24,000 nucleotides of DNA from Bacillus renqingensis. Lineage in GTDB: Bacteria; Bacillota; Bacilli; Bacillales; Cytobacillaceae. Under the pieces are notes generated by a model, which worked only from the letters and a program-made list of their open reading frames with translations, searched no databases and was not told the origin of the DNA. Positions 5,818 through 24,000 of the stretch are shown here, in pieces; position 1 is the first letter of the stretch; each line of letters starts with the position of its first letter. Where the stretch lies: contig JADDIU010000034.1 of assembly GCA_016464375.1 (NCBI GenBank), forward strand, positions 1 through 24,000. The letters run 5' to 3'. Position numbers and translations under genes: made by a program.

Positions 5818-6831
5818 CTAGTATTCTACCACCCGATAATATCTTCTAGTTGATAATGGGTGGTTTCTTTCCTTTTCTAAATGTGTACTAACTCTTTCAA
5901 ATAATGATGCAATAATGATAGGTGATAAGTATTTACGATACTTTTCACTGATTCCTTTAAGCTCGTATTGTTTAGTATCAAATATACTAAGTTTATCTGT
6001 AACCTTCAATGCAAAACGTTCAACCCGTTCCATTAATGGCCGGCTTTCATCCTCCCCCTTCATGAGAATCATACTAGTATCTTTCTCCACCAATTCTAAA
6101 GTACCATGAAAGAACTCAGCAGCATGAATGGCCTTAGTACGAATCCATTGCATTTCCTCAAGAACGCACATAGCATAAGAGTAGGTCTCCCCCCACACAC
6201 TTCCCGATCCAACAAGCATATGATAATCTTCATCTTTATTTAATTTGGCAAATTGGCTTGCTTGACTTTCAGTTGCCTCCTTTACATCTAAGAGGACTGA
6301 TGGCATTCTTTCAAGCTCATCCGCAAACTCCGTATATTCAGAAAACTCTCCTCTTACTTGAAGCAATTTGAAAATAAGCAAATATAATTGAAGATAAATG
6401 GATTCTGACGCAGTGTCATTCTCAGAATAATTCACTAATGTATAATCTGATAGATCAGCCAAAGGAGTTCCTAACTCACCAACCAGCCCAATAGTGGTGG
6501 CTCCCTTTTCCTTACAGAATTCTGCCGCCTTTACTGTTTCCTTAGTAGTTCCTGACAATGAGGAAAGGATCACTAAGGAATCCGGTCCAAATTGTTTGTG
6601 ATTATATAAAACAAATTCAGCTGCAATTTCAGCAAATACCGGAAGTGTAGAAGTCGTTTTAATTATATATTCAAACGGATACATAATAGCGATGGAACCA
6701 CCAGATCCAATTAAAAATAAATTTTTATAACCTCTCTCGTTAAGTGTTTCTACGATATCCTCAATTTGACCTCTTAAACCCAGGGCTCCATTCGTTACTT
6801 TTAAAAAGTTGTCTTTATTAAAATTAAACAT
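5818..6831 (-). CDS. SIS-domain protein, FrlB-like fructosamine-6-phosphate deglycase candidate
   Basis: SIS motifs are present (LFLIGSGGSIAIMYP; SSLSGTTKETVKAAEF...GATTIGLV). The ~337-aa length and double-SIS layout resemble FrlB/GfrF-type deglycases. The RBS AAGGAG lies upstream of the ATG. Confidence 0.7.
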   Translation of the reverse strand: MFNFNKDNFLKVTNGALGLRGQIEDIVETLNERGYKNLFLIGSGGSIAIMYPFEYIIKTTSTLPVFAEIAAEFVLYNHKQFGPDSLVILSSLSGTTKETVKAAEFCKEKGATTIGLVGELGTPLADLSDYTLVNYSENDTASESIYLQLYLLIFKLLQVRGEFSEYTEFADELERMPSVLLDVKEATESQASQFAKLNKDEDYHMLVGSGSVWGETYSYAMCVLEEMQWIRTKAIHAAEFFHGTLELVEKDTSMILMKGEDESRPLMERVERFALKVTDKLSIFDTKQYELKGISEKYRKYLSPIIIASLFERVSTHLEKERNHPLSTRRYYRVVEY

Positions 6832-6888
6832 GTAAATTTCTCCTTTATTTTGTCACCTAATTTCTTTAGAAAAAGTAGTCGTCTAAAG

Positions 6889-7959
6889 TTAAATTTTACT
6901 TTTAAGAACCTTATCAAAATCACTAAAAATGTCCTCTTCTATATCAATTCCTCTGCCTAATGTAATACGATAGGCAAGTACTTGGAATGGAATTACCAAT
7001 AATAGAGGGCTCTTAAATTCATCAACATCTGCTCCAATAGACATTGTTTTTCCATCATCTTCTAATCCACATGTTATTGAAAAACAATGTTCAGTATAAG
7101 TGGAGAAATAGGTTTTTAATTTTTTCGCACGCTCAACATGTTGACTTTTCGTTTGGATTACAATCAATCCATAATTTTCATCCACTTCTAAATATGGACC
7201 ATGCATGAAAGCCTCTAATTCAAATCCCTGAGTTGGGACACGAACCGTTTCTGTGAATTTCGTTTCACTTTCCTTCGCCGTACCATATGTTGGACCATAC
7301 CCCACTACCGCAAAACGCGGAATACTTGTTAATTCTTGTTCATATTGACTATAAAATTTTTCTGTCCGCTCAATAATACTTGGAATCTGCTTGATTGCTT
7401 GTTCCAATTCTTTAATTTCTTGCATCTTAGCAGTTTCTGTTAACTTTCCTAGAGTAGAACCCGCAACAACACCCATCAGCATTAAGGTTAACACTGTTGC
7501 TGAGAAGCCTTTTGTCACATAGCCAACTTTTTCAACACCACAGCCAATATCAAGAACTAAATCTGCATATTCCGTAATCGGGCTATCTAAGTTTGCTGTT
7601 AAAACAGCAGTGGGAATGCTTCCAATTGTACCAGCCTTCTTTAAGGCTTCAATCGTTGAAGAACTTTTTCCACTTTGCGATATGGCAAGAATAAAGTCAG
7701 TGGACGGTTTTACCTGTTCATAATGGACAAAGGAAAAAGGCTCAACTATTTCAATTGATATTCCCGCCGTTTTTTCCAAATAATATTTTGCTGATAATGT
7801 CGCATTATAGCTGGAGCCAGTAGCGATAATCAGCCAGTTTTTTGCTCTTCCCTTTTCCATTAATTGTCTGAATAACTGAAGGCTTTCCTCATAATGACTT
7901 AAAATTTTCGAACATGTTTGTTCTTGTTCATGTATATAATCCATCATTGTCTCTTTCAA
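6889..7959 (-). CDS. SIS-domain sugar-phosphate isomerase/deglycase (GlmS-isomerase-domain / AgaS / GfrE-like)
   Basis: Two SIS-type segments are present (WLIIATGSSYNA...; ISQSGKSSSTIEALKKAG). The TTG start at 7959 has AGGTAGGA 7 nt upstream; an ATG at 7947 is an alternative start. Confidence 0.7.
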   Translation of the reverse strand: MKETMMDYIHEQEQTCSKILSHYEESLQLFRQLMEKGRAKNWLIIATGSSYNATLSAKYYLEKTAGISIEIVEPFSFVHYEQVKPSTDFILAISQSGKSSSTIEALKKAGTIGSIPTAVLTANLDSPITEYADLVLDIGCGVEKVGYVTKGFSATVLTLMLMGVVAGSTLGKLTETAKMQEIKELEQAIKQIPSIIERTEKFYSQYEQELTSIPRFAVVGYGPTYGTAKESETKFTETVRVPTQGFELEAFMHGPYLEVDENYGLIVIQTKSQHVERAKKLKTYFSTYTEHCFSITCGLEDDGKTMSIGADVDEFKSPLLLVIPFQVLAYRITLGRGIDIEEDIFSDFDKVLKSKI

Positions 7960-7992
7960 TTTTCATTCCTACCTTTCTTGATAATAATCAAC

Positions 7993-8844
7993 TCAGCCAA
8001 ATATACCAGCCCAAGCTCCAAGAATACTTACTACACCAATTCCTAATAAAATCGTAGTGGTCTTCCACTGTTTTCCTAACAGCCAATAAATAATACCAAA
8101 TGCAGCTAGAGGCAATAATCCCGGCATAATCCCGTTTAAAATATCTTGTACAGCTGTGGCTGATTTACCAGTTCCGATTTTTAAAGGAACATTCAGGACA
8201 ATCATTTCTGAACTCATTCCACCAATGACCATTAACCCAAGAATAGCTGCACCTAAAGTCAAATAACCCATCGTCCCATTATCTTGTAATTTTTTTAAGA
8301 AACCAGTCCCCATTTTATAACCAAGCGATGTCAATATATAACGCAAAGCAATATGCGGGATATTGAATATAAGGAAAAATAGGATCGGACCTAGAATATT
8401 TCCTTTAAGGGCTAAAGATGTCCCAACACCAGTTGCAATGAGGCGAAGTGTACCCCAAAAAAAGGAATCCCCTATACCAGAAAGTGGTCCCATTAGGGAA
8501 GCCTTTACCGTATTAATGGATGAAGAATCAAACTTTGAATTATCAGCATTTTGTTTCTCCATTGCGACTGAAATTCCCAATATCATCGTTACAATATAAG
8601 GAGTACAGTTGAAAAACTCTAGGTGTCTCTTTAATGCCTGGGAAAGGTCTTCTTTTTTCTTATATAATTTTTTTAATATAGGAATCATGGCATAGACGTA
8701 CCCTAAACTAGCTTGTCGTTCATAGTTCCAAGAAAATTCCATTTGGAACGAACGCCAAAAAAGTCTATTTAAATCTTTTTTACTAATCTCTGTTGATTCA
8801 TCCTTTTGATTAGCAGCACTTTCATTAGAAGTCTTCATCGTCAT
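7993..8844 (-). CDS. PTS mannose/fructose/sorbose-family IID component
   Basis: The hallmark IID N-terminal motif FWRSFQMEFSWNYERQASLGYVYAM is present. The start is set at ATG 8844 because GGAGG lies 11 nt upstream, whereas the track start 8865 has no RBS. The gene overlaps the IIC stop. Confidence 0.9.
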   Translation of the reverse strand: MTMKTSNESAANQKDESTEISKKDLNRLFWRSFQMEFSWNYERQASLGYVYAMIPILKKLYKKKEDLSQALKRHLEFFNCTPYIVTMILGISVAMEKQNADNSKFDSSSINTVKASLMGPLSGIGDSFFWGTLRLIATGVGTSLALKGNILGPILFFLIFNIPHIALRYILTSLGYKMGTGFLKKLQDNGTMGYLTLGAAILGLMVIGGMSSEMIVLNVPLKIGTGKSATAVQDILNGIMPGLLPLAAFGIIYWLLGKQWKTTTILLGIGVVSILGAWAGIFG

Positions 8845-9601
8845 CGTCCACCACTCCTCCTTCATTTGTCGCCAATTTTTGTTTTTGCATAATATTGACC
8901 ATTATTATAGCCACAATAGCTCCAAGAAGAGCAATACCTGTTACAGGTATTTTTAAATAACCCGATAGTAAAAACCCTAAGAAAAAGTATGGTGCCACTT
9001 GTTTATTAATGAGTAATCTAGCAAGCAGTGCAAAACCTAGAGCAGGTATAAGCCCAGTTGCCACTTCAAGACCTTTTTGGATTGGTCCTGGAATTGCATC
9101 TAGGATAAGCTTAATTGTGTCGCTGCCAACATAAAATGAAACACCAACGATGATAGCGATAACCAAAGGCAAACCTATACCACCCAAGAGATGCATGGCT
9201 GATATCCCTCGAGTATTGGCTTCATCTGCATACCGATCTGCTTTATGCAAAAATATTGGTAAAACAAGAGCATAATAAAGATTTTCAAAGATAAGGGCCA
9301 ATGTCGCAATTGGTAATCCAAGTAATAATGCAGTTTCTGCACCCGCCCCGGAAGAAATAGCAAACGCTGTACCTAAAATACCGCCGGTTACAACGTTAGG
9401 CGGAATCGATGCTCCAACCGAAAATGCCCCAACAAACGCTAACTCAAGAGTAGCACCCATAATTATCCCGGTTTTTATATCTCCCATAACAATCCCGGTA
9501 AAAAGGCCTGTTACAATCGGACGTGCTAAATTGCTTGTACCAAGGGCAGTCTCACCCTGTGCTATAAAGGCAATTAAAGCTAATAATATCGCTGTAACCA
9601 C
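8825..9601 (-). CDS. PTS mannose/fructose/sorbose-family IIC component
   Basis: The 258-aa membrane protein resembles ManY/AgaC/LevF-type IIC proteins (ARPIVTGLFTGIVMGD..., GATLELAFVG). It uses a GTG start with GGAGGG 7 nt upstream. Confidence 0.9.
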   Translation of the reverse strand: MVTAILLALIAFIAQGETALGTSNLARPIVTGLFTGIVMGDIKTGIIMGATLELAFVGAFSVGASIPPNVVTGGILGTAFAISSGAGAETALLLGLPIATLALIFENLYYALVLPIFLHKADRYADEANTRGISAMHLLGGIGLPLVIAIIVGVSFYVGSDTIKLILDAIPGPIQKGLEVATGLIPALGFALLARLLINKQVAPYFFLGFLLSGYLKIPVTGIALLGAIVAIIMVNIMQKQKLATNEGGVVDDDDEDF

Positions 9602-9619
9602 TTATAGTCCCTCCTCATG

Positions 9620-10093
9620 TTAATTTACTACGTTTTTTGCGTTTATTTTTTTGTCACTAGGGACCTGCCTAATTTCTACCTCTACACCCTGATGAATCAT
9701 TTTTTTCACCAATTCTTCTTCTTCAGGCAATAAGTTCACTGCCTTGCTAATATTTCTTGTTCCTTCCCTTGCCTTCACCCCCCCTAAGTTCACTTGTTTA
9801 ATTTCCGGATATGCGCTTACAATTTTCTCTGCATCGGCAACAGACTCAACGACAATAAACAGTTTGTATTTATCTGTCACCCCGCTTTTCAGTGCCTCGA
9901 TAGAATCTGTGATATTTTTGATAACCAACCTGACCCCTTGCGGTTTTGCCAACTTAATTGTGGTTTTTCGTAATTCATTTACCGGTACATCATCGTTGGC
10001 GATTAAAATGCAATCAGCGCCAAGAGTTTGCGTCCAAGAAAAAGCAACTTGTCCATGTAATAGGCGATGGTCTACACGTAACAGTTTAATCAT
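9620..10093 (-). CDS. PTS mannose-family IIB component
   Basis: The N-terminal LLRVDHRLLHGQV motif carries the phosphorylatable His of EIIB(Man). GGGAGGA is the RBS. Confidence 0.9.
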   Translation of the reverse strand: MIKLLRVDHRLLHGQVAFSWTQTLGADCILIANDDVPVNELRKTTIKLAKPQGVRLVIKNITDSIEALKSGVTDKYKLFIVVESVADAEKIVSAYPEIKQVNLGGVKAREGTRNISKAVNLLPEEEELVKKMIHQGVEVEIRQVPSDKKINAKNVVN

Positions 10094-10107
10094 TTTAAAT
10101 TCCTCCC

Positions 10108-10527
10108 TTAAAATTCCTCATCCTCTGTGTCAATTTCAATTTCTAGATTGCAATATTTTATCGAGTTTTTTGAATTACTTAGAGCTGTTTTAATCAATCT
10201 CAACGTATCCGTTTCCATGTTTCTCATCGATACTAGTTCAATGACCAATGGCAAGTTCAGTCCGGCAATTAAATGGATTCGCTTGTCTCCTAATAAATTC
10301 ATAAATTCGTTATTAACGCTCCCGCCAAAGATGTCGGATACTACTATCAATTCATCTTCTTTCCCAAGCTTGTTTATCACATCGCTGATCTGGGAATGAA
10401 GATCCTTCTCTTCATCAACGTAAGCGGATATTGTCCAAACATTTTCCTGCTTACCTGTGATCATTTCGACTGAATGGAGTATCCCTTCTGCCAGTTTGCC
10501 ATGCGAGGCAAATAACAAATATCTCAT
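10108..10527 (-). CDS. PTS mannose-family IIA component
   Basis: The N-terminal LLFASHGKLAEGILHS motif (EIIA-Man His) is present in a 139-aa product. The RBS AAAGGTGGTG lies upstream. Confidence 0.9.
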   Translation of the reverse strand: MRYLLFASHGKLAEGILHSVEMITGKQENVWTISAYVDEEKDLHSQISDVINKLGKEDELIVVSDIFGGSVNNEFMNLLGDKRIHLIAGLNLPLVIELVSMRNMETDTLRLIKTALSNSKNSIKYCNLEIEIDTEDEEF

Positions 10528-10566
10528 GTTGCATCACCACCTTTTAACCAATCTATCTATATACAA

Positions 10567-10582
10567 TGCAAAAAGCGTGCCA
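10567..10582 (-). promoter_or_regulatory. Sigma-54 (-24/-12) promoter of the PTS operon: TTGGCACGCTTTTTGCAT
   Basis: The minus strand reads TGGCAC-N5-TTGCA, an exact match to the consensus TGGCAC-N5-TTGCW. It lies 40 nt upstream of the IIA ATG and directly downstream of a sigma-54 enhancer-binding-protein gene. Confidence 0.85.
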
Positions 10583-10596
10583 ACTTAGTGGCACGC
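10570..10596 (-). terminator. Terminator hairpin of the LevR-like gene (GCGTGCCA-N6-TGGCACGC + T5); its 3' arm is the -24 box
   Basis: The 8-bp GC-rich stem starts 13 nt after the activator stop codon (10610-10612). It is followed on the minus strand by TTTTT. Confidence 0.6.
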
Positions 10597-10609
10597 CTTT
10601 TTTAAAAAA

Positions 10610-13390
10610 TTAAAATTCCTCGTAAGCGCTTGATTCAGCAACGATATAATCGTAAATGTATCCGATTTCAGCCGTGGTGATTTTGACATTATAAATGTCT
10701 TCTATGACACTAAACGCTTCTTTGATGTATTTTATCATTTCCTTTTGACACTGTTCAAAATCTGCCAGATTTGCATAATTCTCGATCGGCGCCTGGCGAA
10801 TGAGCCTTTCCACCAAACAACTAACATGAACATATAATGCGACCTTTTTGTCATTTGACAGTCGCTTGTTTAGCCGGATCTCTAACCGATGAATAAATTC
10901 TTCGGCGTGGGAGAGGATTTTCTCCGAATCCAAAATGGTAATCGATTCAATGACACGTTCAAGGGAGCAATTGCGAATCAAGTTATCATTGATTTCTTTA
11001 AAACGCTCTTCCTTCATGATCGGCAGGAAGATTTTGCGCATCTTAGCCTCCCCTTGTCCAGAGATAATATCCTCTAATGAAAGATACGGGACGTTATCTA
11101 GACCGGGGTCGGTTGTCCCGACGATGGCAAGGACATCATAAATTTGAAAGATGGCCTCTGAAGTCCCCACTTCTTTAAGACGGTCATAATCATAAGCCAT
11201 GACTTGGATGGATAGATCCTCCGGTATACTGGCCTCGAGTAACTTCTGAATTTGGCAGGCCGTCCCCATCCCCGTTAAACACGAAGTGATGATGACCTTA
11301 TCTTTTTCCTTTTCAGGATAAATGATGTTATATTCTGTTTCATTTGCCGATTGCAATTTTTCAATCATTTCTTCTAAAAATAAATCCTTCTCCAGCATAC
11401 TGCCGAGAAATAGCGCCATTTGTGTGGAGACGTTATTTATAATCGCCACCGGGGCGTTTACATGTTTTTTAAATTGTGAATAGATATCTTTCAATGAACC
11501 CATATCGACTAAAATGACAAGCCCTTTTGAGACATCGTTATGTTCAATATAATCGACGACCTTGGCAGCGGTTTCCTCTACGGATATATCAATCGGCATA
11601 TCGAAGGCCTCAAAGACGTTCTTCTTCAGCAAACGATTGGCGACGTTGGCAATGCTGCTGGCGGTTGCATACCCATGGGCAAGAATGATTGCCTTTACTT
11701 GTTGATTTGTTCGTTCAATCGCCAAACTTCGCAAATAGAGGGCCAAAAGGATTTCATCCATTTGATAAAGCTTCACCTCTAGTTTGCTTTCCAGCAGATG
11801 GACAAATTGCTTCGCCAGCTGCTGCTCCATCCTGTAGGATACTTCAATATGATGGGCCAGCTTTTTGATGGTCGCCTCTTGTTTTTCAGACCATCTTATC
11901 ACCGTGCTGCCCTTGTAATAAAGGAAATGAGCAATGGCATAGATACTATTGCCATTAAATTTTATATGATAGTTATTTTCTAGATGCTGAATAATCTCTT
12001 GAACACTGACGGTCGTTAATTCCAACCTTACACCAGCGTCTTCTTTTGTATGATTAAAAATGAGCTGATCAAAGAGTAAGAGTATGTCGTTGATTACCTT
12101 TTGCTCAAAATATTTCTCATCCCAGCTTTTTGCCTGACGTTGTTCGAATAGGTCCAGCATTTTTTCAAATGTCTGTTTAATTAATTGCATATGCGAAATA
12201 CTTGTCTCGTATAATTGATCGAGGGTTGAGTCGGGATGAATCACCATATCGTGATGTTGCTTTAATTTGTTGTCTGTAAACCGGATCGTCTCTTCCAACA
12301 GTTGATCGGGCAAATCATGTAAAGTTACCTGAACTTCATCTGCGTCCTGATTTTTCACAAACGAGGAGGCGGCAATGTATTTGATCGTGTTTTTCAAGTC
12401 ACCCATGTTTCCCGTGTAATGGTATTTGGTTAAGGCATCAAGGGCCCGGTTCGTAATCCGAATCGGCTTGCCAAGTTTTTTGGCCTCGTTGATTAAAAAC
12501 AGATAAATAAATTGTTTCTTCTCTTTCTCCCCGCGTTCATCGAGGCTCGGTATCACGACACGAATGGGAATACGCCGCAAAAAGGTTGGTAAAAAACTCT
12601 CCTCCAAATTTTCCGTTGTTGCAAAGATCAGACGGACATTTGCTTGATGGCTGCCTTCACTTTCGCCCATACGACGAAAAACGCCTTGATCAAGGAAAGT
12701 GAACAGCTTCTCTTGTCCCTCGGCATTTAACCTGTGGACTTCATCTAAAAATAAGATTCCCCCATCGGCTGCGGCAAGCATCCCATCTTTTGTTTTATCA
12801 GCGCCGGTAAAGGCACCTTTGACATAGCCAAACAAATTACTCGACATGAGCTCGGGGTTGTTCGCATATTGGGCACAATTAAAACTAATAAACGGAGCAT
12901 CTTTCGCCAGTATCCCTTTTTCCACACTGTAACGATAGATTAATTCTGCAGTATAGCTTTTTCCTACCCCGGTCGGGCCGGATAATAGAATCGGCAGCCC
13001 GCCATCCGGGTAGAAAATGGACGTTTTCATCTGTTCGATCGCTTTTTCAAGACTACCGTCCGCGCCTATCAAACTTTCAAGGATATCTTGCGGAGGCTTT
13101 ACCTCCGGCTGACATTGCAGCAACTCTTGAAAACTAGAAAAAACATAGGTTGGCAGCGGAAAAAATTTTCGTTCAAATAGAGCGCGGCTTATGAAGTAGA
13201 CCGGTCTTGTGTTGATCTTAATAATCTTTTCCTCATCCACCAACTGATTGAGATAGTGACTCACGGTATTACGCTTCACAGCAAATAGTTCCGAAATTAC
13301 CCCAGCCGTCAACCTCTCTGAAGGCCTCTCCAAATCCAACCCATCTGTCTCCTTATCCAGAAAATCTAATAAACTCTCTTTTAAGCCCAT
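10610..13390 (-). CDS. Sigma-54-dependent, PRD-containing transcriptional activator (LevR family)
   Basis: The product contains an N-terminal HTH, an AAA+ sigma-54 interaction module (Walker A LLSGPTGVGKS; GAFTGA motif in GYVKGAFTGADK; Walker B ILFLDEV), a PRD, an EIIA(Man)-like segment (AIILAHGYATASS), an EIIB(Gat)-like Cys segment (VIITSCLTGMGTA) and a second PRD. The start is set at ATG 13390, where AGGTG lies 6 nt upstream. The track start 13459 adds 23 aa with no RBS. Confidence 0.9.
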   Translation of the reverse strand: MGLKESLLDFLDKETDGLDLERPSERLTAGVISELFAVKRNTVSHYLNQLVDEEKIIKINTRPVYFISRALFERKFFPLPTYVFSSFQELLQCQPEVKPPQDILESLIGADGSLEKAIEQMKTSIFYPDGGLPILLSGPTGVGKSYTAELIYRYSVEKGILAKDAPFISFNCAQYANNPELMSSNLFGYVKGAFTGADKTKDGMLAAADGGILFLDEVHRLNAEGQEKLFTFLDQGVFRRMGESEGSHQANVRLIFATTENLEESFLPTFLRRIPIRVVIPSLDERGEKEKKQFIYLFLINEAKKLGKPIRITNRALDALTKYHYTGNMGDLKNTIKYIAASSFVKNQDADEVQVTLHDLPDQLLEETIRFTDNKLKQHHDMVIHPDSTLDQLYETSISHMQLIKQTFEKMLDLFEQRQAKSWDEKYFEQKVINDILLLFDQLIFNHTKEDAGVRLELTTVSVQEIIQHLENNYHIKFNGNSIYAIAHFLYYKGSTVIRWSEKQEATIKKLAHHIEVSYRMEQQLAKQFVHLLESKLEVKLYQMDEILLALYLRSLAIERTNQQVKAIILAHGYATASSIANVANRLLKKNVFEAFDMPIDISVEETAAKVVDYIEHNDVSKGLVILVDMGSLKDIYSQFKKHVNAPVAIINNVSTQMALFLGSMLEKDLFLEEMIEKLQSANETEYNIIYPEKEKDKVIITSCLTGMGTACQIQKLLEASIPEDLSIQVMAYDYDRLKEVGTSEAIFQIYDVLAIVGTTDPGLDNVPYLSLEDIISGQGEAKMRKIFLPIMKEERFKEINDNLIRNCSLERVIESITILDSEKILSHAEEFIHRLEIRLNKRLSNDKKVALYVHVSCLVERLIRQAPIENYANLADFEQCQKEMIKYIKEAFSVIEDIYNVKITTAEIGYIYDYIVAESSAYEEF

Positions 13391-13508
13391 ATTTTTCACC
13401 TGCCTTGTAGGAATTGCCTCCTTCTTTGATGAAAGACGTAAGGCCAGCCGGACTGGCATATAGGAGAGGGCTGTCCACTAATCCTCTCGCTAGGTACCAC
13501 CTCAATTT

Positions 13509-15429: not shown

Positions 15430-16911
15430 CTAGTCTAAGTTCACCCAAACACTTTTAATTTCTGTATAGCTTTCAAGGGCATATGCACTCAAATCTCTGC
15501 CAAATCCTGATTGTTTGTAACCGCCGAATGGGGAGGCCGGGTCGATAGCGTCGTAACAGTTAATCCATATGCTGCCGGATTTTAGTTGATTGGCAATTTT
15601 GTGAGCCGTATTGACGTTTTCTGTCCAGATGCCTGCACCTAATCCATATGGTGAGTTATTGGCCCGTTCAATTACTTCTTCAACCGTATCATATACCATT
15701 ACCACGACAACAGGACCGAAGATTTCTTCCTTGGCAATAGTCATGCTTTCTTCAACATCCACAAAGATGGTCGGTTCAATAAAATACCCTATGTCTGTTT
15801 TTCCACCCCCTGCTACAATCCTTGCCCCCTCTTGTATACCAATTTTGATATATTCAAAAACACGTTCCTGCTGCCTTTTTGATACAAGTGGCCCCATTGA
15901 TGTATCTTCTTCTAATCCGTTTCCTATCTTAACTTTTTTCGCTAGTTCAACCAGTCCGGCAACAACTTCATCGTATTGCTTCCGATGAACATATACCCGA
16001 GAACCGGCACTGCACACTTCTCCTTGATTGAACATAATACCATAAAACACCCCGGGAATGGCTTTTGAAAGATCCGCATCCGGAAGAATAATATTAGGTG
16101 ACTTTCCTCCAAGCTCAAGGGTTAATCGTTTCATGGTATCAGCGGCTTTTTTCATAATTTGCTTTCCGATTGCCGTTGAACCTGTAAACGAAATTTTGTT
16201 AACATCAGGGTGTTCTACGATCGCATTCCCGGCAATCGCCCCAAAACCAGGAACGATATTGATGACACCAGGAGGAAAACCAGCTTTTTCAACAAGTTCT
16301 GCAAAATAAAGAGCTGATAACGGAGTCTGTTCTGCCGGCTTTAATATAATTGTACAGCCGGCAGCTAATGCTGGCGCTACTTTCCAAGAAACCATATTAA
16401 TTGGGTAGTTCCAAGGAATAATTTGCCCTACTACGCCAACCGGCTCTGGACGAGTATAATTCAAGAAAGAACCGGCAACCGGAATAGTTTGTCCCATTAC
16501 CTTCGTCGCCCAACCGGCAAAATAGCGGAATTGTTCAATTGTTCCCGGCAGATCTACTGTCCGTGTTTCATTAATCGGTTTCCCATTGTCAATCGTATCT
16601 AACTGGGCCAATTCTTCCTGATGTTCCTCTACCAAATCCGCTAATTTATAGATTAATCTTGCCCTTTCAGCAGCGGATATTTTTAGCCATGGACCCTCTT
16701 CAAAAGCAGCTTTTGCTGCCTTTACCGCTAAAACGATATCTTCTCTTCCCGCTTCATAGACTGTAGCCAATACCTGTCCGGTAGCTGGATTATAGGTTTC
16801 AAATGTTTTAGAAGAGTGGGATTCTACAAATTCACCATTTATATAAAGCTTTTTTGTTTCTTTTAAAAACTCTGTCACTTTACTGCTCATTTTTAATAAT
16901 TGATTCGCCAC
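15430..16911 (-). CDS. NAD(P)+-dependent aldehyde dehydrogenase (ALDH superfamily; aminoaldehyde/betaine-aldehyde-DH-like)
   Basis: The catalytic motifs LELGGKSP (Glu) and FNQGEVCSAGSR (Cys), plus the C-terminal PFGGYKQSGFGR, are present. The start is probably GTG 16911, which has AAGGAGG 7 nt upstream. The track ATG 16917 is only 1 nt from the RBS, and ATG 16890 is another option. Confidence 0.88.
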   Translation of the reverse strand: MANQLLKMSSKVTEFLKETKKLYINGEFVESHSSKTFETYNPATGQVLATVYEAGREDIVLAVKAAKAAFEEGPWLKISAAERARLIYKLADLVEEHQEELAQLDTIDNGKPINETRTVDLPGTIEQFRYFAGWATKVMGQTIPVAGSFLNYTRPEPVGVVGQIIPWNYPINMVSWKVAPALAAGCTIILKPAEQTPLSALYFAELVEKAGFPPGVINIVPGFGAIAGNAIVEHPDVNKISFTGSTAIGKQIMKKAADTMKRLTLELGGKSPNIILPDADLSKAIPGVFYGIMFNQGEVCSAGSRVYVHRKQYDEVVAGLVELAKKVKIGNGLEEDTSMGPLVSKRQQERVFEYIKIGIQEGARIVAGGGKTDIGYFIEPTIFVDVEESMTIAKEEIFGPVVVVMVYDTVEEVIERANNSPYGLGAGIWTENVNTAHKIANQLKSGSIWINCYDAIDPASPFGGYKQSGFGRDLSAYALESYTEIKSVWVNLD

Positions 16912-16940
16912 CAACATTCCTCCTTATCTTTATAAAGAAA

Positions 16941-16981
16941 CAGGTCAGAGATCAGGCAGTTTCCACTTTTTCTCTAACCTG
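16941..16981 (-). other. Intercistronic imperfect stem-loop between the aminotransferase and ALDH genes
   Basis: CAGGT.AGAG ... CTCT.ACCTG forms 5+4 bp with one internal mismatch and a 21-nt loop. It is followed on the minus strand by TTTCTTT. It could be a weak attenuator or an mRNA processing/stability element. Confidence 0.2.
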
Positions 16982-16996
16982 TACAATTAAATTTAA

Positions 16997-18373
16997 TTAA
17001 AGTGTTTTTTCAAAAGCAGTAAGGGAATCATCTATAATACTAATGATCTCCTCAACCTCTTCTTTATTAATAATTAGCGGCGGAGCAATGGCAACGATAT
17101 TCTTACCTTCCTCAAAATCAGCAGCTCTTAAGATTAATTTGTTATTAAAACAATGATCAACAACAAAAGCAGCTGCACGAATTGATTGTTCAAATGGTGT
17201 ATCTGTATCACGATCTGCTTGTAAGTCAAAACCGGCAAGTAAACCTAATGCCCTTGGCTTTGCGAAATGAGGATGCTTATCTGCTAAATAAGCAAAACCC
17301 TTTTTAAGTACTGCCTCCATGTTGTTTACATTTTCAAGAAGATTATCTCTTTCAAAAATTTCTATATTCTTTAACGCTACAGCACAGGCGGTTGGATGAC
17401 CGCTATACGTAAATCCGTGGCCTAAAATTTGATCGTATTCAACAATGGCATCTCTAATCTCCTTATTAACCAATACTCCTCCTAATTGTGCATAGCCGCT
17501 TGTAATTCCTTTTGCGACACTCATAATATCAGGAATAACATTCCAATTATCTACACCAAACCATTTTCCCGTCCGTCCGAAACCGCAAATAACTTCGTCT
17601 GCGATTAATAAAATGTCATTCGCTTGACAGAGATTTTTTACAGCCTTTAAATAACCATCTGGGGAAACATGAACTCCTCCTGCCCCTTGAACTGGTTCAA
17701 GAATAACCGCCGCAATATTTTCGGAACCTACTTTTTCAATTGTGTCGCGGATACATCCTTCATAATTTGGATCCGTTTTATCACCTAATTCACAATTGGT
17801 TACTTGCCCTCTGGCATTGATGATATCTATATCCCTTGAGCCTGCAAAATTATGGAAGGCATCGATACCTGTTGCAGTACCAGCTGAAACAGTAGCTCCA
17901 TGGTAGCTTCGATTGATGGAGATAATTTTCTTCTTAGTTGGACGCCCTTTTAGATTCCAATAAAATCTTGCCAATTTAAAAGCTGTGTCGTTAGATTCAG
18001 AGCCGCCAGAAGTAAAGAAGATGGCAGATAAATCTCCTGGCGTGATGGAAACTACCTTTTCCGCTAAGCGAACGGCATTGGGATTGGAGTATCCGTAAAA
18101 TGAAGAGCTGTATGCAATTAAGCTCATTTGATCAAATGCAGCCTGAGCAAGCTCCTTATTTCCATGACCTAAGTTGACATTCCATAACATTGAAACACCA
18201 TCAATATAGGTATCTCCCTTTATATCGGTTACATAAATCCCATTTCCTTCTTTGAAAATAATTTTCGGCCCTTTTTCCTGAAACAATCTGGGTACCGTTG
18301 TCGGATGTAAAAAATGTTTTTTGTCTGCTTCAATTAATTTTTCAATTTGGGAAACTGTTTGCGGACTTGCCAT
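16997..18373 (-). CDS. Class-III PLP-dependent aminotransferase (omega-amino acid / diamine:pyruvate or 2-oxoglutarate type)
   Basis: The motifs FFTSGGSESNDTAFKLAR and LIADEVICGFGRTGKWFG are present, together with the PLP-lysine context SVAKGITSGY. The product is 458 aa, with the RBS TAGGAGG upstream. Confidence 0.88.
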   Translation of the reverse strand: MASPQTVSQIEKLIEADKKHFLHPTTVPRLFQEKGPKIIFKEGNGIYVTDIKGDTYIDGVSMLWNVNLGHGNKELAQAAFDQMSLIAYSSSFYGYSNPNAVRLAEKVVSITPGDLSAIFFTSGGSESNDTAFKLARFYWNLKGRPTKKKIISINRSYHGATVSAGTATGIDAFHNFAGSRDIDIINARGQVTNCELGDKTDPNYEGCIRDTIEKVGSENIAAVILEPVQGAGGVHVSPDGYLKAVKNLCQANDILLIADEVICGFGRTGKWFGVDNWNVIPDIMSVAKGITSGYAQLGGVLVNKEIRDAIVEYDQILGHGFTYSGHPTACAVALKNIEIFERDNLLENVNNMEAVLKKGFAYLADKHPHFAKPRALGLLAGFDLQADRDTDTPFEQSIRAAAFVVDHCFNNKLILRAADFEEGKNIVAIAPPLIINKEEVEEIISIIDDSLTAFEKTL

Positions 18374-18615
18374 GTATCATTACCTCCTAAAATAAAATAA
18401 TAAATAGTTGAATATGTTTAAACCTTGGCTGCTCCTTTACTATAAAACAATAAGACTTACAATATAGTTGTGAAATTCAGGAACTATTAAGGAAATATTC
18501 CATAAATATAAAGTACATAATATTTTGAATATTGTCAACAGTTTTATTCTATCATCTGTCTACTCTATAGGGACAAATGCTATACTTTGTTCATAATCAG
18601 TGGCGCCTCCTACTG

Positions 18616-20055
18616 TTAGGATGTAACCGGTGAATTCTTCGATTGATCTAAGAGTACTTCCTGTTCTTCCACTGGCAAACGGTTGATCCTTATATTTGAG
18701 TATCCATAGATGATCGCAACAAAAGTGCTGATGTAACAGAAAAAGGCATATGGGGCATAATCTAAAGCAGAGACTTTAAGGACAGAGAACATGAAAATAC
18801 CACATGTTGTCCATGGAAGAAGACAAGCTGTTACGGTACCACAATCCTCTAAAGTTCTTCCTAATAATTTTGGATGAAAACCTCGTTTTTTATATTCATT
18901 TAAAAACATACGGCCCGGTATTACGACTGACATAAATTGGTCACAACCAACAATATTCGATGTTATACATGTAGCAGCTGTTGCTCCGATTAAACTTCCT
19001 GTACGTTTTATTTTCCTTAGCATTCCACCAAGGATTGCTTCTAGTACTCTTACTTTCTCAAGCGTGGCTCCGAAAGATAACGCAATTAGAATCAGAGACA
19101 CCGTATACATCATGCTTTGAATTCCACCTTGGTTCAACAGCTCATCCGTTACTTTATTTCCTGTTTCAGTACTAAAGCCATTATTCATGATTGATAGCAT
19201 GTCACCTAATGAAACATGTTGGACAATCATAGCAATGATGGCACCGATAATAACACCAACTGATAAACCTGGAATTGCGGGAATCTTTAATACAAAAATT
19301 AAAAAGATAAAGATTAAAGGCAGTAATAACCATGGTGAAATAGTAAAATGCTCCGAAAGAATTTTTTGAACATTTGTGGCCATTGATAAGTCGACATGAT
19401 CTCCATGAAATTTAAATCCCAGTAGTGTATATAAAAGCAGTGAAATAAGGAGTGTGGGAACAGTTGTATTCATAAGATTACGAATATGTTCAAAGAGATC
19501 TACCCCTACTACCGCCGAGGTGAAATTTGTTACGTCTGATAAGGGGCTCATTTTATCCCCAAAATAGACTCCGGAAACTACTGCACCTGCCACCATTGGT
19601 AATGGAATTCCTAAACCTTGACCAATTCCCATTAATGCTACACCAATAGTCCCGGCAGCAAACCAAGCATTCCCTGCCATACTAACAAGAACAGATATAA
19701 TACAAGCAGTAACCAAAAAAAAGGTTGGCGATAATATCCCAATCCCATAATAAATCATCGAAGGAACAATTCCTGCAGCCACCCATGCACCAATAAATGC
19801 CCCAATTATCACAAGGATTAACAATGCTTTAATAGATACAGCTATTGTTTTTGAGATATCTTCCTCAATTGATTTCCAAGAATGCCCCAGTTTCAAGGCA
19901 ACAATCACTGCAACAACTGTACTTAATAAAAGAGGAACATGCGGGTCAGCACCGTATACTCCGATACCAATTGCAAGGGCAGCTCCCATAAAAACAATTG
20001 GTATTAGTGCAATCCATACGGGAGGTAATTCATTCCCAGCCTTTCCCTGTTTCAT
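18616..20055 (-). CDS. NhaC-family membrane transporter (Na+/H+ antiporter family; substrate unknown)
   Basis: The 479-aa polytopic protein has an N-terminal pattern (...HVPLLLSTVVAVIVALKLGHSWKSIEE...) typical of the NhaC/MleN family. The RBS AGGAGAG lies 7 nt upstream of the ATG. Confidence 0.8.
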   Translation of the reverse strand: MKQGKAGNELPPVWIALIPIVFMGAALAIGIGVYGADPHVPLLLSTVVAVIVALKLGHSWKSIEEDISKTIAVSIKALLILVIIGAFIGAWVAAGIVPSMIYYGIGILSPTFFLVTACIISVLVSMAGNAWFAAGTIGVALMGIGQGLGIPLPMVAGAVVSGVYFGDKMSPLSDVTNFTSAVVGVDLFEHIRNLMNTTVPTLLISLLLYTLLGFKFHGDHVDLSMATNVQKILSEHFTISPWLLLPLIFIFLIFVLKIPAIPGLSVGVIIGAIIAMIVQHVSLGDMLSIMNNGFSTETGNKVTDELLNQGGIQSMMYTVSLILIALSFGATLEKVRVLEAILGGMLRKIKRTGSLIGATAATCITSNIVGCDQFMSVVIPGRMFLNEYKKRGFHPKLLGRTLEDCGTVTACLLPWTTCGIFMFSVLKVSALDYAPYAFFCYISTFVAIIYGYSNIRINRLPVEEQEVLLDQSKNSPVTS

Positions 20056-20401: not shown

Positions 20402-21643
20402 TTAGTCTAGTTGCTTATCAAGATGAATCAAAGCGTGCAGCATCAGGTTTCCAGCTTTTCTAATATCTTCAGGGCTGCTATACTCTTCAGAACAATGACT
20501 TTTTCCGTCTTTACTTTTCACAAAAATCATCGCGGACTTTGTAACTGAAGCCATATGTGCTGCATCATGAACCGCCATACTGGAAAGTGTCAGATATGGC
20601 TCATTTAATTCTTCCGCTGTATTTTGCAGAACTGAAACAATTTCTGAATCCAGGATAATAGGACTTTGATTTAAAAAAACCTTCTCCTCGATTTCCACTT
20701 TTCTTTCATTTGCAATCTGCATCCAATTATCTTGTATTTTTTTTACTACTGTTTGGATTTGCTCTTCTGAGTCTCCTCTTATTTCAAATGTAAACTCAAC
20801 CATTCCAGGTATGATATTGGTCGCATTCGGAAATACATGGAGCTTTCCAACCGTTCCTACCAAATCATTTTTCTCACTTTTACAAATATGTTCAATATGC
20901 AGGATAATTTCCGCTGCTGCCGTCAAGGCGTCCTTTCGGTGTTCCATCATAGTCGTACCGGAATGGTTCGCTTGACCGTTTACCCTCACCCTACTTCGAT
21001 ACATCCCCACTACCTTATCGACAACAGCGACTGAAATGTTTTTACTTTCAAGACGCTTTCCCTGTTCAATATGAAGCTCAATAAATCCCTTTTTTTCCTT
21101 GAATGATCTTTCCATCTCGGGGAAATTTTCTAGTGATCCGCCCACCTCTCTCAATTGATCCTTTAAGAAGTTCCCTTTTGAATCCCGTACATCTTCCAGT
21201 GCTGTTTTTGTCAATTTCCCTGTATATGCCCTGCTACCGAACGTTGATAAATTGAAATCATTTGACTCCTCAGCTGTAAAAGATACAATCTCTACATCAT
21301 GATCTAAAATGATTCCATTCTCAATAAGTGTCCTTATTACTTCCTTCGCTGTTAGAACACCAAGTGGTCCATCATACTTACCACCATTGGGAACAGAGTC
21401 CAAATGGGAACCGATGACAAGACAACCTTCCTTCTTTCCGGATCCTTTTAACCTTCCCCAAGTATTTGCGGCACCATCAATTGTAACCGCTAATCCCATG
21501 TCCTCTAATTCATTGATAAATAGCTCACGGACAAGCTTGTCAGCCTGTGAAAAACTAGGTCTGGTAATCCCCCCTTCTAAACTTTCTCCATACTTTGCAT
21601 ATTTTTCAAGGTCCACCAACAATCTTTCAATATTTATCTGCAT
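20402..21643 (-). CDS. M20-family Zn-dependent amidohydrolase (allantoate amidohydrolase / N-carbamoyl-amino-acid hydrolase / beta-ureidopropionase family)
   Basis: The characteristic motifs ITRPSFS...D and IGSHLDSVPNGGKYDGPLGV are present in a 413-aa product, matching the 'hydantoinase/carbamoylase-family amidase' group. Confidence 0.85.
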   Translation of the reverse strand: MQINIERLLVDLEKYAKYGESLEGGITRPSFSQADKLVRELFINELEDMGLAVTIDGAANTWGRLKGSGKKEGCLVIGSHLDSVPNGGKYDGPLGVLTAKEVIRTLIENGIILDHDVEIVSFTAEESNDFNLSTFGSRAYTGKLTKTALEDVRDSKGNFLKDQLREVGGSLENFPEMERSFKEKKGFIELHIEQGKRLESKNISVAVVDKVVGMYRSRVRVNGQANHSGTTMMEHRKDALTAAAEIILHIEHICKSEKNDLVGTVGKLHVFPNATNIIPGMVEFTFEIRGDSEEQIQTVVKKIQDNWMQIANERKVEIEEKVFLNQSPIILDSEIVSVLQNTAEELNEPYLTLSSMAVHDAAHMASVTKSAMIFVKSKDGKSHCSEEYSSPEDIRKAGNLMLHALIHLDKQLD

Positions 21644-21685
21644 GTTCCAATCTAACCCTCACTTTTCTCGAAATGACCATAATAA

Positions 21686-22363
21686 TCACTCGTCCCCTTT
21701 CACACCATAGGAAGGAGCGGTTTCGGGTTCAAGCGCTCTCACTTTATAATTTTCCGCTTGAGGGCCATATATCCCCCAAAGTTTCTTTAAATTATTGAGA
21801 GGGTCATCGTCATAATCAATTCTTAAGTCGACATATGCAAATGGAAGATCCGGCTGATAAATCAACAGTGCAATCGAATGCTCCTGGTCAAGCTCCCCTC
21901 CCATATCAAAACCTAATTCAATCGTAGAAATCAGCTTTTCTGCTAAAGGAAGATCCTGTAGTTTACTAAAATGAAGACCCATCATGCTAGGTATGGTTGA
22001 ATCGCTCAAAAGATTTCCAATACAGGCTACATTGTCTGTATAAAATTCGCCATAATTTCCAAGCACCCGGTTACCGGTAAAAACACTCGCCCCTCCATGT
22101 GTATCAATAACAGCTAATTGTCGATATTCAGGATAATCTGAAGCCGCTGCCATCGTCCGGATTGCTGCTTGTGCATCATACCCTTTTTCTAAAGTGAGTA
22201 ATCCAATATCAGCTAAGCGGGGGTCGGTCACATTTTGTGTAAGTATTACTCCAACGTTTGATTTGATCCAGGGACATCGCGCCCCAACAGCTGGACTGCT
22301 TGATGTAACAATTGCCCCTAATGCACCAGTAGTTGCACATCGTGCCGCCACGGAAAAGGTCAT
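21686..22363 (-). CDS. DUF1028-family protein (Ntn-hydrolase-like fold), function unknown
   Basis: From ATG 22363 the N-terminus is MTFSVAARC..TGALGAIVTSSSPAVGARCPW, typical of DUF1028, with Thr directly after the initiator Met. A perfect RBS AAAGGAGG lies 7 nt upstream. The track start 22405 adds 14 aa with no RBS. Confidence 0.75.
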   Translation of the reverse strand: MTFSVAARCATTGALGAIVTSSSPAVGARCPWIKSNVGVILTQNVTDPRLADIGLLTLEKGYDAQAAIRTMAAASDYPEYRQLAVIDTHGGASVFTGNRVLGNYGEFYTDNVACIGNLLSDSTIPSMMGLHFSKLQDLPLAEKLISTIELGFDMGGELDQEHSIALLIYQPDLPFAYVDLRIDYDDDPLNNLKKLWGIYGPQAENYKVRALEPETAPSYGVKGDE

Positions 22364-22382
22364 TTTATTTCCTCCTTTAAAT

Positions 22383-22428
22383 AAAAAGCGGAGCAGCAAA
22401 AACAATTCACCTCTAAATTGCTGTCCGC
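22383..22428 (-). terminator. Weak terminator-like hairpin between the RidA and DUF1028 genes
   Basis: The minus strand reads GCGGAcAGC-N22-GCTgcTCCGC followed by TTTTTATTT, immediately before the DUF1028 RBS. The stem is interrupted (5+3 bp) and the loop is large. Confidence 0.25.
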
Positions 22429-22471
22429 ACTATTCGGTATTGTAAAAGTTTACTAGTTTCCAATAAATTAT

Positions 22472-22903
22472 TTACTCTTCATCACTAATAACTGCTTCAA
22501 CATCAATCTCTACAAGCATTTCCGGAAGGGCAAGTCCGCTGACAACAAGACCAGTGCTAACAGGGTAAACACCTTTAAAATGTTTCGCAATTACACTATA
22601 AGCATCCTTACGATAGGATCGATCTGTTAAATACGTAGTAATTTTACAAACATCCTCCATTTTAGCGCCTGCTTCTTCCAAAAGCTGTTTAATACAGCGG
22701 CATGCATTTTCTGTTTGCTCAATTACATCTCCTACACCATGAAAATTCCCCTCTATGTCAAATCCTGTTTGTCCTCTCATATAAATATGGTTCCCAGCAC
22801 GCACAACCATGCAAAACTCATTTGAAACATGATGAGATTCTTCTCCAAAATTAGGAGGATAAAACTTGTTGGTTTCAAATTTACGCAATCTTTTATGGAC
22901 CAT
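22472..22903 (-). CDS. RidA/YjgF/YER057c-family protein (enamine/imine deaminase family)
   Basis: The 143-aa product has the family pattern ...YMRGQTG...G....QT...C.KQLLEEAGAKMEDVCKITTYLTD...Y and a C-terminal ...LVEIDVEAV. The RBS AAAGGAG lies upstream. Confidence 0.8.
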   Translation of the reverse strand: MVHKRLRKFETNKFYPPNFGEESHHVSNEFCMVVRAGNHIYMRGQTGFDIEGNFHGVGDVIEQTENACRCIKQLLEEAGAKMEDVCKITTYLTDRSYRKDAYSVIAKHFKGVYPVSTGLVVSGLALPEMLVEIDVEAVISDEE

Positions 22904-22954
22904 TTTCCATTACTCCTTTTACTTTATAATGATAAAGTGATTGTCATAATACCC

Positions 22955-24000
22955 TTAAACAGTAAGAGTTGTTGTTGTGTTAAGATTCGCTGCTTTTCTA
23001 ACTAATTCACGTATTGGCTCTGCATCAAAGTTGTTGTATGTTGCCATGTATTGGGCAAATGGCGGACTTTGGGCAAACAACTCAAATGTTACCATATGGC
23101 CAGCATAAGAAGAATTGAGTAAGTCACGTGCAAAGTAAAGTAATTTCCCACGTTCTTCTGCAGTCCATTCTCCTACTGAATAGTAACGACCAATATAATC
23201 GATAATCGCTGGATCAGACATAGTTGATGTGTCTGGAGTAACAGCCAGCTGTCCTCCCACAAGTTCTCTCGTTAAATGGGCCATTTCCGGAAAGTTTTGT
23301 AAGGCAAATAATCTTCCGGTGTATAATAACGATTGATTTGGCATCATTAAGCCGCCAGGACTGCGCTCTGCATTGGCTACTGCTGCTGTTAAATGGGCAT
23401 TGATTCCTTCACGGTACGTAATCAATTGGGCAATTTTTTCCTTTACTGCCTGCAGCTTAGTCAATCCAGTTTGTTCTACATTCAATAATGCTGTACCCAG
23501 TAAATAGTCTGCTCTCCTTAATATCCTTAGAGTGTAATTAAAAGCTGAATAGCGGTGCAACGTTGAGCGAATATAGGCAGCAGATTCCAGCGAACGGTGG
23601 AACAGTACATTTTCCCAGGGAATCAGTACGTTATCAAAAATTAGTAATGTATCAATCTCCTCAAATTTAGTTGAAATAGGATAATCGGCTTTTCTTTTCC
23701 CTGCTCCAATCGAAGAACGGCAGATATGTTTTAATCCGGGTGCACCCATATCACAAATAAATCCACAAGCAAACGGCGCCATTGCCTCTTTCCCTGCTTC
23801 CCAGTCTAAAATCGTTGGTTTAACAAAAGCCTGGTGGGCATAAGCAGCTGCTGTTTCAAACTTTGCCCCTTTCACCACAATACCATTATCGTTTTCTTTT
23901 ACCACATGGAGCAATGTACCGCCATCTGTACCACTGAATAACTTACTGCGGTCACCCTTAGGGTCTGTATTTGCTGATACGTGGAACAAGTCCTCTCTTG
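22955..24000 (-). CDS. HpaB-family protein: 4-hydroxyphenylacetate-3-hydroxylase-type flavin-dependent oxygenase component / 4-hydroxybutyryl-CoA dehydratase family (5' end outside window)
   Basis: The frame stays open to nt 24000; the listed 'M' at 23989 is a TTG inside a longer ORF. The segment ..DPKGDRSK..., LHVVKENDNGIVVKGAKFETAAAYA and the C-terminal helical domain resemble the HpaB/PvcC/AbfD family, which is typically 480-500 aa. Confidence 0.7.
   Translation of the reverse strand, partial: REDLFHVSANTDPKGDRSKLFSGTDGGTLLHVVKENDNGIVVKGAKFETAAAYAHQAFVKPTILDWEAGKEAMAPFACGFICDMGAPGLKHICRSSIGAGKRKADYPISTKFEEIDTLLIFDNVLIPWENVLFHRSLESAAYIRSTLHRYSAFNYTLRILRRADYLLGTALLNVEQTGLTKLQAVKEKIAQLITYREGINAHLTAAVANAERSPGGLMMPNQSLLYTGRLFALQNFPEMAHLTRELVGGQLAVTPDTSTMSDPAIIDYIGRYYSVGEWTAEERGKLLYFARDLLNSSYAGHMVTFELFAQSPPFAQYMATYNNFDAEPIRELVRKAANLNTTTTLTV

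Follow-up and report, generated by a model that had tools for sequence, protein, structure and literature searches.

A putative histamine/imidazole-4-acetate regulon in Bacillus renqingensis, proposed as a variant in Bacillota of the Hin pathway known from Pseudomonas

The closest described relative of the locus reported here is the Hin system of Pseudomonas putida U and P. aeruginosa PAO1, in which hinFLHG (PA5393-PA5390), accompanied by hinDAC, hinI and hinK, takes imidazole-4-acetate to aspartate (PMC6467879, PMC8231116). HinF is a flavin adenine dinucleotide (FAD) monooxygenase (EC 1.14.13.5), HinL an enamine deaminase, HinH an amidase and HinG an enzyme of EC 3.5.1.8, and the remaining parts are the permease HinA, the aminotransferase HinC, the aldehyde dehydrogenase (ALDH) HinD, the aspartase HinI and the LysR regulator HinK (PMC6467879, PMC8231116). 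The original survey reported hin genes to be absent from sequenced Gram-positive bacteria (PMC8231116), and the HinF type was later found in Brevibacterium (PMC6467879). We describe a gene cluster in the Bacillus renqingensis assembly GCA_016464375.1, within and just beyond the first 24 kb of the 52-kb contig JADDIU010000034.1 (C72); this stretch (G000:C72:1-24000) is referred to as the window, and the same numbering is kept beyond it. We consider it probable that the cluster is a histamine/imidazole-4-acetate catabolic regulon and a Bacillota variant of the Pseudomonas Hin pathway, with a HpaB-clade oxygenase proposed, from its sequence and context, as the imidazole-4-acetate monooxygenase in place of HinF.

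Gene content and operator of the locus

The genome has 40% G+C and its nearest homologues come from Bacillus sp. MUM 116 and Neobacillus. The original prediction, made from the window alone, described four co-oriented minus-strand genes for a HpaB-family protein, a RidA-family protein, a DUF1028 protein and an M20 amidohydrolase, and expected a flavin reductase and a regulator, if present, to lie past position 24,000. All four open reading frames are where it placed them and match HpaB_N+HpaB, Ribonuc_L-PSP, DUF1028 and Peptidase_M20 in Pfam, and extension along the contig gives both the reductase (24463-24960) and a regulator gene (25194-26510). The four genes are therefore real, but the unit is larger than was thought, adding the reductase and, through a common operator, nhaC, aminotransferase and ALDH genes. 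The features, from the regulator downwards, are:

25194-26510 (beyond the window), plus strand: divergent regulator, 438 amino acids; no Pfam match, Atlas neighbours named as regulators
24984-25046 (beyond the window), minus strand: reductase promoter and operator, by operator matrix and promoter pattern
24463-24960 (beyond the window), minus strand: flavin reductase, PF01613 (E 7e-40)
22955..24000 (start beyond the window at 24415, 486 amino acids), minus strand: HpaB-clade oxygenase (HpaB_N+HpaB), group D two-component oxygenase subunit
22472..22903, minus strand: Rid-family protein of the HinL-type clade, Ser116 at the RidA Arg105 position; Ribonuc_L-PSP (E 1e-20)
21686..22363, minus strand: DUF1028 Ntn-hydrolase with N-terminal Thr, predicted HinH-type amidase; DUF1028 (E 1e-53)
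20402..21643, minus strand: M20 amidohydrolase, hydantoinase/carbamoylase subfamily, proposed N-formylaspartate deformylase; Peptidase_M20, TIGR01879
20215..20276, minus strand: nhaC promoter and operator, GGAA-N14-TTCC palindrome just after the -10 box; joint top genome score
18616..20055, minus strand: NhaC-family transporter, proposed amine uptake (HinA role); TIGR00931, 465 vs 370 bits
18477..18538, minus strand: promoter and operator of the aminotransferase-ALDH pair; third best genome score
16997..18373, minus strand: class III (omega-amine) aminotransferase, proposed histamine transaminase (HinC role); PF00202
15430..16917, minus strand: ALDH, proposed imidazole-acetaldehyde dehydrogenase (HinD role); PF00171
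15352..15376, minus strand: terminator-like hairpin and T run 3' of the ALDH gene, consensus match only

Gaps between the genes from the reductase to M20 are 47, 51, 108 and 42 bp, and the nhaC, aminotransferase and ALDH genes (15430-20055) lie downstream of M20 on the same strand.

For comparison 80 homologous HpaB loci were assembled, comprising 36 Bacillota loci (71-93% identity) and 44 loci of other phyla (57-60%), with neighbour families assigned by means of reference proteins. Within 7 kb of HpaB, Rid was found in 65 and DUF1028 in 54 of these loci; among the 70 with at least 3 kb of downstream DNA the same Rid clade was present in 60 and DUF1028 in 51, so the grouping of the genes is not due to chance, and the neighbourhood conservation on which the original prediction depended does hold. 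The operon is conserved across several phyla, with the deacylase slot filled by a carbamoylase-type M20 in 27 of the 36 Bacillota loci and by ArgE-like or other M20 proteins in other phyla. A stand-alone FAD-synthetase-like gene occurs in 31 of the 36 Bacillota loci; it is absent from the C72 copy (22904-22954) and sits directly 3' of the oxygenase gene in the two closest relatives. In Neobacillus and its relatives the oxygenase gene is often accompanied by a tandem second copy or by fragments (L004, L006, L007, L011, L021, L121, L013, L032 and L024-L025).

Upstream of the reductase, just after the -10 box, is the palindrome GGAA-N14-TTCC, which is conserved in 18 homologous upstream regions. 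When the 4.58 Mb genome was scanned with an operator matrix trained on 18 other loci, its own sequence having been left out, the top three sites were those before the reductase (24984), nhaC (20215) and the aminotransferase (18477), while the sites of a paralogous operon on contig C74, described below, ranked 4 and 7. Four sites scored above 20, compared to none with column-shuffled matrices, and the combined promoter and operator pattern had exactly three matches in the genome, all in this locus, with none for the control. Lower-scoring matrix matches, within uvrB (C87) and close to genes of other kinds (C100, C1), were treated as chance. The operator also stands directly before the aminotransferase gene in 9 of the 11 Bacillota loci holding that gene. 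Because one operator is common to all three promoters, eight genes (reductase, oxygenase, Rid, DUF1028, M20, nhaC, aminotransferase and ALDH) probably form one regulon. This points to common control of the oxygenase operon and of amine uptake, transamination and oxidation, in the way that HinK governs both hinDAC and hinFLHG.

The position of the operator over the transcription start suggests repression, and the product of the divergent 438-amino acid gene is the likely candidate repressor. This gene is present in 26 of the 36 Bacillota loci (the reductase in 34), and is not of the LysR type to which HinK belongs, a similar LysR being found in 34 of the 44 HpaB loci outside Bacillota. A second member of the regulator family, 56% identical, is encoded at C122:26-1231, where the gene starts at the contig end, and is next to what appears by eye to be a glycine-betaine-type ABC transporter.

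Proposed correspondence with the Hin pathway

On Pseudomonas-like contigs the genes for FAD monooxygenase, Rid, DUF1028 and ArgE follow in that order at more than 30 loci, and one such locus (L176) holds the whole published set of LysR, Rid, monooxygenase, DUF1028, ArgE, aminotransferase, APC permease and ALDH. The LysR protein of a similar locus (L200) is close to a residue-for-residue match to PDB 6M5F/3FZV (E 1e-164); we take 6M5F to be HinK, though a literature search gave no paper confirming this. Because the gene order of these FAD-type operons matches hinFLHG, the Rid, DUF1028 and M20 proteins of our locus can be read as counterparts of HinL, HinH and HinG. The original prediction had called the route undescribed and DUF1028 a family of no assigned function; neither description can be kept as it stands, for the three proteins correspond to parts of a genetically defined Pseudomonas pathway, with HinH as the DUF1028 counterpart by gene order (PMC8231116, PMC6467879).

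The earlier RidA-family label survives at the level of the Ribonuc_L-PSP match but not as RidA proper, since the protein scores below the TIGR00004 cut-off (50.7 vs 106 bits) and the whole Rid clade has Ser116 at the position of the RidA catalytic Arg105. This arginine separates the imine deaminases (RidA and Rid1-3) from the remaining Rid family (PMC4433059). As the arginine needed for RidA-type imine quenching is absent, a role as an enzyme of the pathway is, judged by sequence, more likely for this protein than one in damage control. It is 48-51% identical to the Rid proteins of FAD-monooxygenase-type operons, with which it shares an N-terminal signature, and 29-32% identical to the other Rid proteins of its own genome.

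The DUF1028 gene starts with an ATG behind a GGAGG ribosome site, giving Met-Thr-Phe-Ser, and the Thr after the Met is invariant in 56 sequences. Its structural model (predicted local distance difference test, pLDDT, 95.5) has the N-terminal nucleophile (Ntn) hydrolase fold, with Z scores of 30.5 to 2IMH, 14.6 to Taspase1 and 11-12 to proteasome beta/HslV; apart from its own family, Taspase1 is thus its nearest match in fold, followed by the proteasome beta subunits. The model thus confirms the fold that had been foreseen, and the protein is predicted to be an amidase with an N-terminal Thr nucleophile. It is 38-44% identical to the DUF1028 proteins of FAD-monooxygenase-type operons, with the invariant residues in common, and a literature search on DUF1028 returned only an unrelated mention.

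The M20 protein passes the TIGR01879 hydantoinase/carbamoylase model (373 vs 204 bits) but fails the AllC (241 vs 598 bits) and ErtE (400 vs 520 bits) models, and had no BLAST match at E 1e-3 to the ArgE-type protein of FAD-type operons. It resembles the L-N-carbamoylases and allantoate amidohydrolases (PDB 3N5F, AllC, ErtE) in its intact metal-site and substrate-binding motifs, and differs from them by conserved, clade-specific changes beside the active site (EESNDF for EEGARF and SMAVHD for SGAAHD). If the locus is a Hin variant, we propose that this protein is then a deformylase and not a carbamoylase.

For the upper pathway, the ALDH shares 41-44% identity with the ALDHs encoded in Pseudomonas-like hin loci, and its best NCBIfam match, to phenylacetaldehyde dehydrogenase, is below cut-off. 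We regard the transporter, aminotransferase and ALDH, on sequence comparison, as putative functional analogues of their Hin counterparts, orthology not being implied, and amine import is ascribed to the NhaC-family protein by its operator and context.

Neighbours of the homologous loci also point to imidazoles. A histamine dehydrogenase gene adjoins the reductase in L061 (E 3e-299 against PDB 3K30), with homologues near six further loci (7 non-Bacillota loci in total); aspartase is encoded in 8 HpaB-type loci, including the same cluster in L014, L021, L022, L027, L028, L030 and L031; HutD is a neighbour in L091-L093; and an Aminobacter locus combines reductase, HpaB, Rid, DUF1028, LysR, ArgE and aspartase with HutD nearby. 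An imidazole is thus the most likely substrate of the locus.

According to the proposed mechanism, the NhaC-family protein would import the amine, the class III transaminase would convert histamine to imidazole-acetaldehyde and the ALDH would oxidise this to imidazole-4-acetate. The reductase would supply reduced FAD with which the HpaB-clade oxygenase and O2 would hydroxylate the imidazole ring, giving imidazolone-acetate; Rid would aid hydrolysis of the unstable ring, the DUF1028 Thr-nucleophile amidase would take ammonia off to leave N-formylaspartate, and M20 would split this into aspartate and formate. Aspartate could then pass to fumarate via an unlinked aspartase (C91; TIGR00839 passed), and the divergent regulator would repress the three promoters via the operator over the transcription start. 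Rid and DUF1028 may act in either order, via what we presume to be N-formylisoasparagine or N-formiminoaspartate (a literature search yielded no paper on the former). The formate dehydrogenase accessory gene fdhD is near the cluster in L084 (3254-4066), L009 and L005, which would fit formate release. Genes of two further families join the cluster, a histone-deacetylase-family gene in L009, L015, L030 and L084 (in L015 with the operator directly before it) and an amidohydrolase gene in L003, L014, L024 and L025; either could serve to release histamine from an N-acyl form.

Like the Hin system, the locus has flavin oxygenase, Rid, DUF1028 and M20 deacylase in that order in one operon, with a HinL-type Rid beside the oxygenase and a HinH-type DUF1028 protein of the same clades, has a transporter, class III aminotransferase and ALDH under the common operator and the presumed regulator of the lower operon, and has aspartase genes in several homologous loci. 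It differs in having a two-component group D oxygenase with a separate reductase where HinF is a single-chain FAD enzyme, a carbamoylase-type deacylase where HinG is ArgE-type (the same superfamily in the same operon slot), a non-LysR regulator with its operator over the transcription start where HinK is LysR, and an NhaC-family transporter and Bacillus-like host. Because the HinF, ArgE-type HinG and LysR HinK features are lacking, we class the locus as a variant of the Hin type, short of full membership. The FAD-type monooxygenase was not found in the 80 HpaB loci and has no close homologue in the B. renqingensis genome (the best match, a partial one, has E 1.6e-7 and 30% identity).

The oxygenase clade and the identity of the substrate

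Several observations weigh against this assignment. The equation of HinL with the Rid clade and of HinH with DUF1028 was made by gene order and published descriptions, not from their own sequences; the aminotransferase has only 32-34% identity to the HinC-like aminotransferases of Pseudomonas-like hin loci; the aspartase gene on C91 is unlinked to the locus and lacks the operator; and on two Paracoccaceae plasmids the two oxygenase types occur together within one cluster, so they need not do the same job. The HpaB copies of these plasmids sit on long branches in a quick IQ-TREE tree of L001-L045 and 15 others, which had very long outgroup branches and was used only for branch lengths and for the HutI subclade described below.

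There is also a second operon in the same genome (C74:38220-47714, L088), encoding reductase, HpaB, FAD-synthetase-like protein, Rid, DUF1028 and M20, with identities to the C72 copy of 80% for the oxygenase, 76% for Rid, 71% for DUF1028 and 61% for M20. It is divergent from genes for an SsuA-type ABC transporter and a class II aldolase-family protein, has operator sites at 43361 and 43740 and has no regulator gene adjacent, and the presence of two paralogous operons suggests more than one substrate. In a subclade of Bacillota (L033, L035, L036) a PepT-like M20 gene and HutI follow HpaB, and Rid, DUF1028 and the operator are absent; the HutI, directly downstream, passes TIGR01224 (imidazolonepropionase), and the subclade has a sigma-54-type activator and, in L035 by eye, a sodium-solute-symporter-like transporter. 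An imidazolonepropionase in place of Rid and DUF1028 fits an imidazolone product of the oxygenase, but the subclade represents one event, which lessens its weight. It is possibly a route for a different imidazole, such as imidazole-propionate.

It could therefore be argued that the chemistry is the same but that the C72 copy acts on another imidazole or its amine (N-methylhistamine/methylimidazole-acetate, imidazole-propionate, imidazole-lactate or imidazole-carboxylate), leaving imidazole-4-acetate to the C74 paralog. The two operons with their different transporters, the occurrence of at least two copies in several Bacillaceae, the plasmids with both oxygenase types and the propionate side chain to which the HutI-linked subclade points in some members are all in favour of this, yet we think it unlikely, as the Rid, DUF1028 and M20 block is complete in the C72 copy, whose operator also stands before the genes for a primary-amine transaminase and an ALDH, while aspartase within the cluster of close homologues fits an acetate side chain.

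A non-imidazole N-heterocycle, whether pyrrole-2-carboxylate or the substrate of a Rut-like pyrimidine, hydantoin or ureido route, appears distinctly improbable. The original prediction was right, we believe, in proposing that a flavin-dependent oxidation of an N-heterocycle is followed by hydrolytic steps, and went astray in favouring a Rut-like, ureido or N-carbamoyl substrate. Like RutABCDEF, the locus pairs a reduced-flavin oxygenase for an N-heterocycle with a Rid protein and amidohydrolases, and its M20 is in the carbamoylase subfamily. Unlike Rut, it has no RutB or RutD homologue in the operon, Rid fails RutC (TIGR03610, 42 vs 169 bits), the reductase fails RutF (TIGR03615, 91 vs 255 bits) and M20 fails AllC and ErtE as above; RutA, moreover, is a luciferase-type enzyme. 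For pyrrole-2-carboxylate it can be said that its monooxygenase (EC 1.14.13.130) is listed as group D (PMC6165268) and that Rhodococcus species carry the oxygenase clade. On the other side, ArgE-type deacylases fill the M20 slot elsewhere, so a carbamoyl group is not required, and the informative neighbours are imidazole-specific. Pyrrole-2-carboxylate would yield 2-oxoglutarate, with neither deformylase nor aspartase needed, and a literature search found no sequence or gene-cluster paper for its monooxygenase.

Homologues of the oxygenase are named 4-hydroxyphenylacetate 3-hydroxylase in databases, and the ALDH is nearest to phenylacetaldehyde dehydrogenase models, so that a tyramine/4-hydroxyphenylacetate pathway, in which transaminase and ALDH make 4-hydroxyphenylacetate for hydroxylation by HpaBC, had to be considered. 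The oxygenase does have the HpaB fold (template modelling (TM) score 0.89-0.91 at 25-27% identity to solved structures) and a partner flavin reductase, as a group D two-component flavin monooxygenase should, and is like HpaBC (TIGR02309) and the group D enzymes TftD, TcpA, HadA, PnpA1 and SgcC in fold (TM about 0.9), HpaC-type reductase partner and Arg101. It is unlike them in its 23-27% identity over all members compared, in falling below the TIGR02309 cut-off (243 vs 480.2 bits), whereas another gene of the genome, on contig C1, passes (541 bits), and in the absence of phenol-catabolic genes, a ring-cleavage dioxygenase among them, from the recurring neighbours seen.

Residues invariant in 78 aligned members of the clade, which shows 57-93% identity across phyla (Bacillota, Proteobacteria, Actinomycetota), are R101, D104, E105, H145, S147, R283, H287, R288 and Y289. 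On alignment with Thermus HpaB, Arg100 is kept and Tyr104, His142 and His289 are replaced by Glu105, Ser147 and Tyr289; Tyr104 and His142, which we take to be phenol-binding residues, are Glu and Ser in 78/78 sequences. With Rid, DUF1028 and M20 also left unexplained by it, the tyramine pathway is very unlikely. A 4-hydroxybutyryl-CoA dehydratase (AbfD), which the original prediction had left standing and which shares the fold (1U8V, TM 0.87, 23% identity), can be dismissed with near certainty, for true HpaBs outscore AbfD as matches to the oxygenase, the operon has a flavin reductase and usually a FAD-synthetase-like gene, and a single invariant Cys (C232) argues against an iron-sulphur dehydratase, AbfD having three conserved Cys and a His that bind a 4Fe-4S cluster, at positions (in the R-x3-Y region of HpaB) that we presume to be occupied here by Arg101 and Glu105.

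To return to the reading of the locus as a Hin variant, it would also share with the Hut pathway (HutU, HutI, HutG) an imidazolone intermediate, ring hydrolysis and removal of a C1 unit, HutI replacing Rid and DUF1028 in the one subclade; Hut differs in forming the imidazolone by hydration (urocanase), not oxygenation, and in ending at glutamate, and the genome has a separate hut-like operon on C35. A literature search, with most subscription journals outside its coverage, found no published HpaB-type histamine/imidazole oxygenase.

Distribution, neighbouring genes and wider meaning

The distribution is patchy: of 200 other genomes of the family, 4 had the oxygenase, and a sample of 400 genomes from across the phylum showed no match to the Rid. 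Twelve Rid-clade loci came from an even sample of 400 Gammaproteobacteria, with the FAD monooxygenase nearby in 5, the HpaB-clade oxygenase in 3 (one being the seed genome), neither in the DNA examined in 4 and both in none. In a plasmid collection, more than 100 Klebsiella plasmids carried a gene for the FAD-type monooxygenase, and more than 100 carried one for DUF1028.

A class II aldolase/adducin-family gene recurs beside the operons (L088:16906-17715, L026, L071, L087, L094, L111 and L115), with 33 further matches among L127-L206 and 28-35% identity across phyla; in L111 it accompanies a dioxygenase-like gene and an amino acid ABC transporter. Such genes may provide another feeder route to the imidazole acid.

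Beyond the regulator, C72:26638-42215 is an aromatic-catabolism cluster with Rieske ring-hydroxylating alpha and beta subunits, short-chain dehydrogenases, an aspartate-dehydrogenase-like gene, an ALDH and a thiamine pyrophosphate enzyme and, by eye, glyoxalase-like, cupin-like, major facilitator superfamily, IclR-like regulator, hydrolase and ABC transporter genes; the genome matrix scan gave no operator site of the regulon in it. Elsewhere in the window, 5066-13459 holds a mannose-family phosphotransferase system operon with two SIS-domain proteins, a HAD hydrolase and a LevR/DagR-type activator, which in our view resembles Amadori-compound (fructoselysine-type) utilisation loci, and 3854-4768 holds a 304-amino acid minus-strand open reading frame with no Pfam match at E 1e-6 that looks, by eye, like an Rpn-type nuclease/transposase.

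The overall pathway is already known; what this locus contributes is a form of it from Bacillota, with a further replacement at the M20 step, a regulon defined by its operator, and copies that are paralogous or linked to HutI. More tentatively, and with doubts that we share, the HpaB-named clade might be an undescribed group D monooxygenase family hydroxylating imidazole rings, whose paralogs are split among different imidazoles, one branch feeding a HutI-type hydrolase in an O2-dependent imidazole-propionate route and another being fed by a class II aldolase-like enzyme, with the Bacillota members under an uncharacterised regulator family acting at the operator defined here. If the assignment of the locus is true, a second, unrelated enzyme family, now labelled in databases as a phenol hydroxylase, would carry out the ring-attack step of histamine breakdown, and Bacillaceae would have a gene set for histamine use, which would be of relevance to histamine removal in fermented fish and cheese. 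It would also offer a testable function for a Rid protein that lacks the catalytic arginine, for DUF1028 and for regulators of a family that has no Pfam model.

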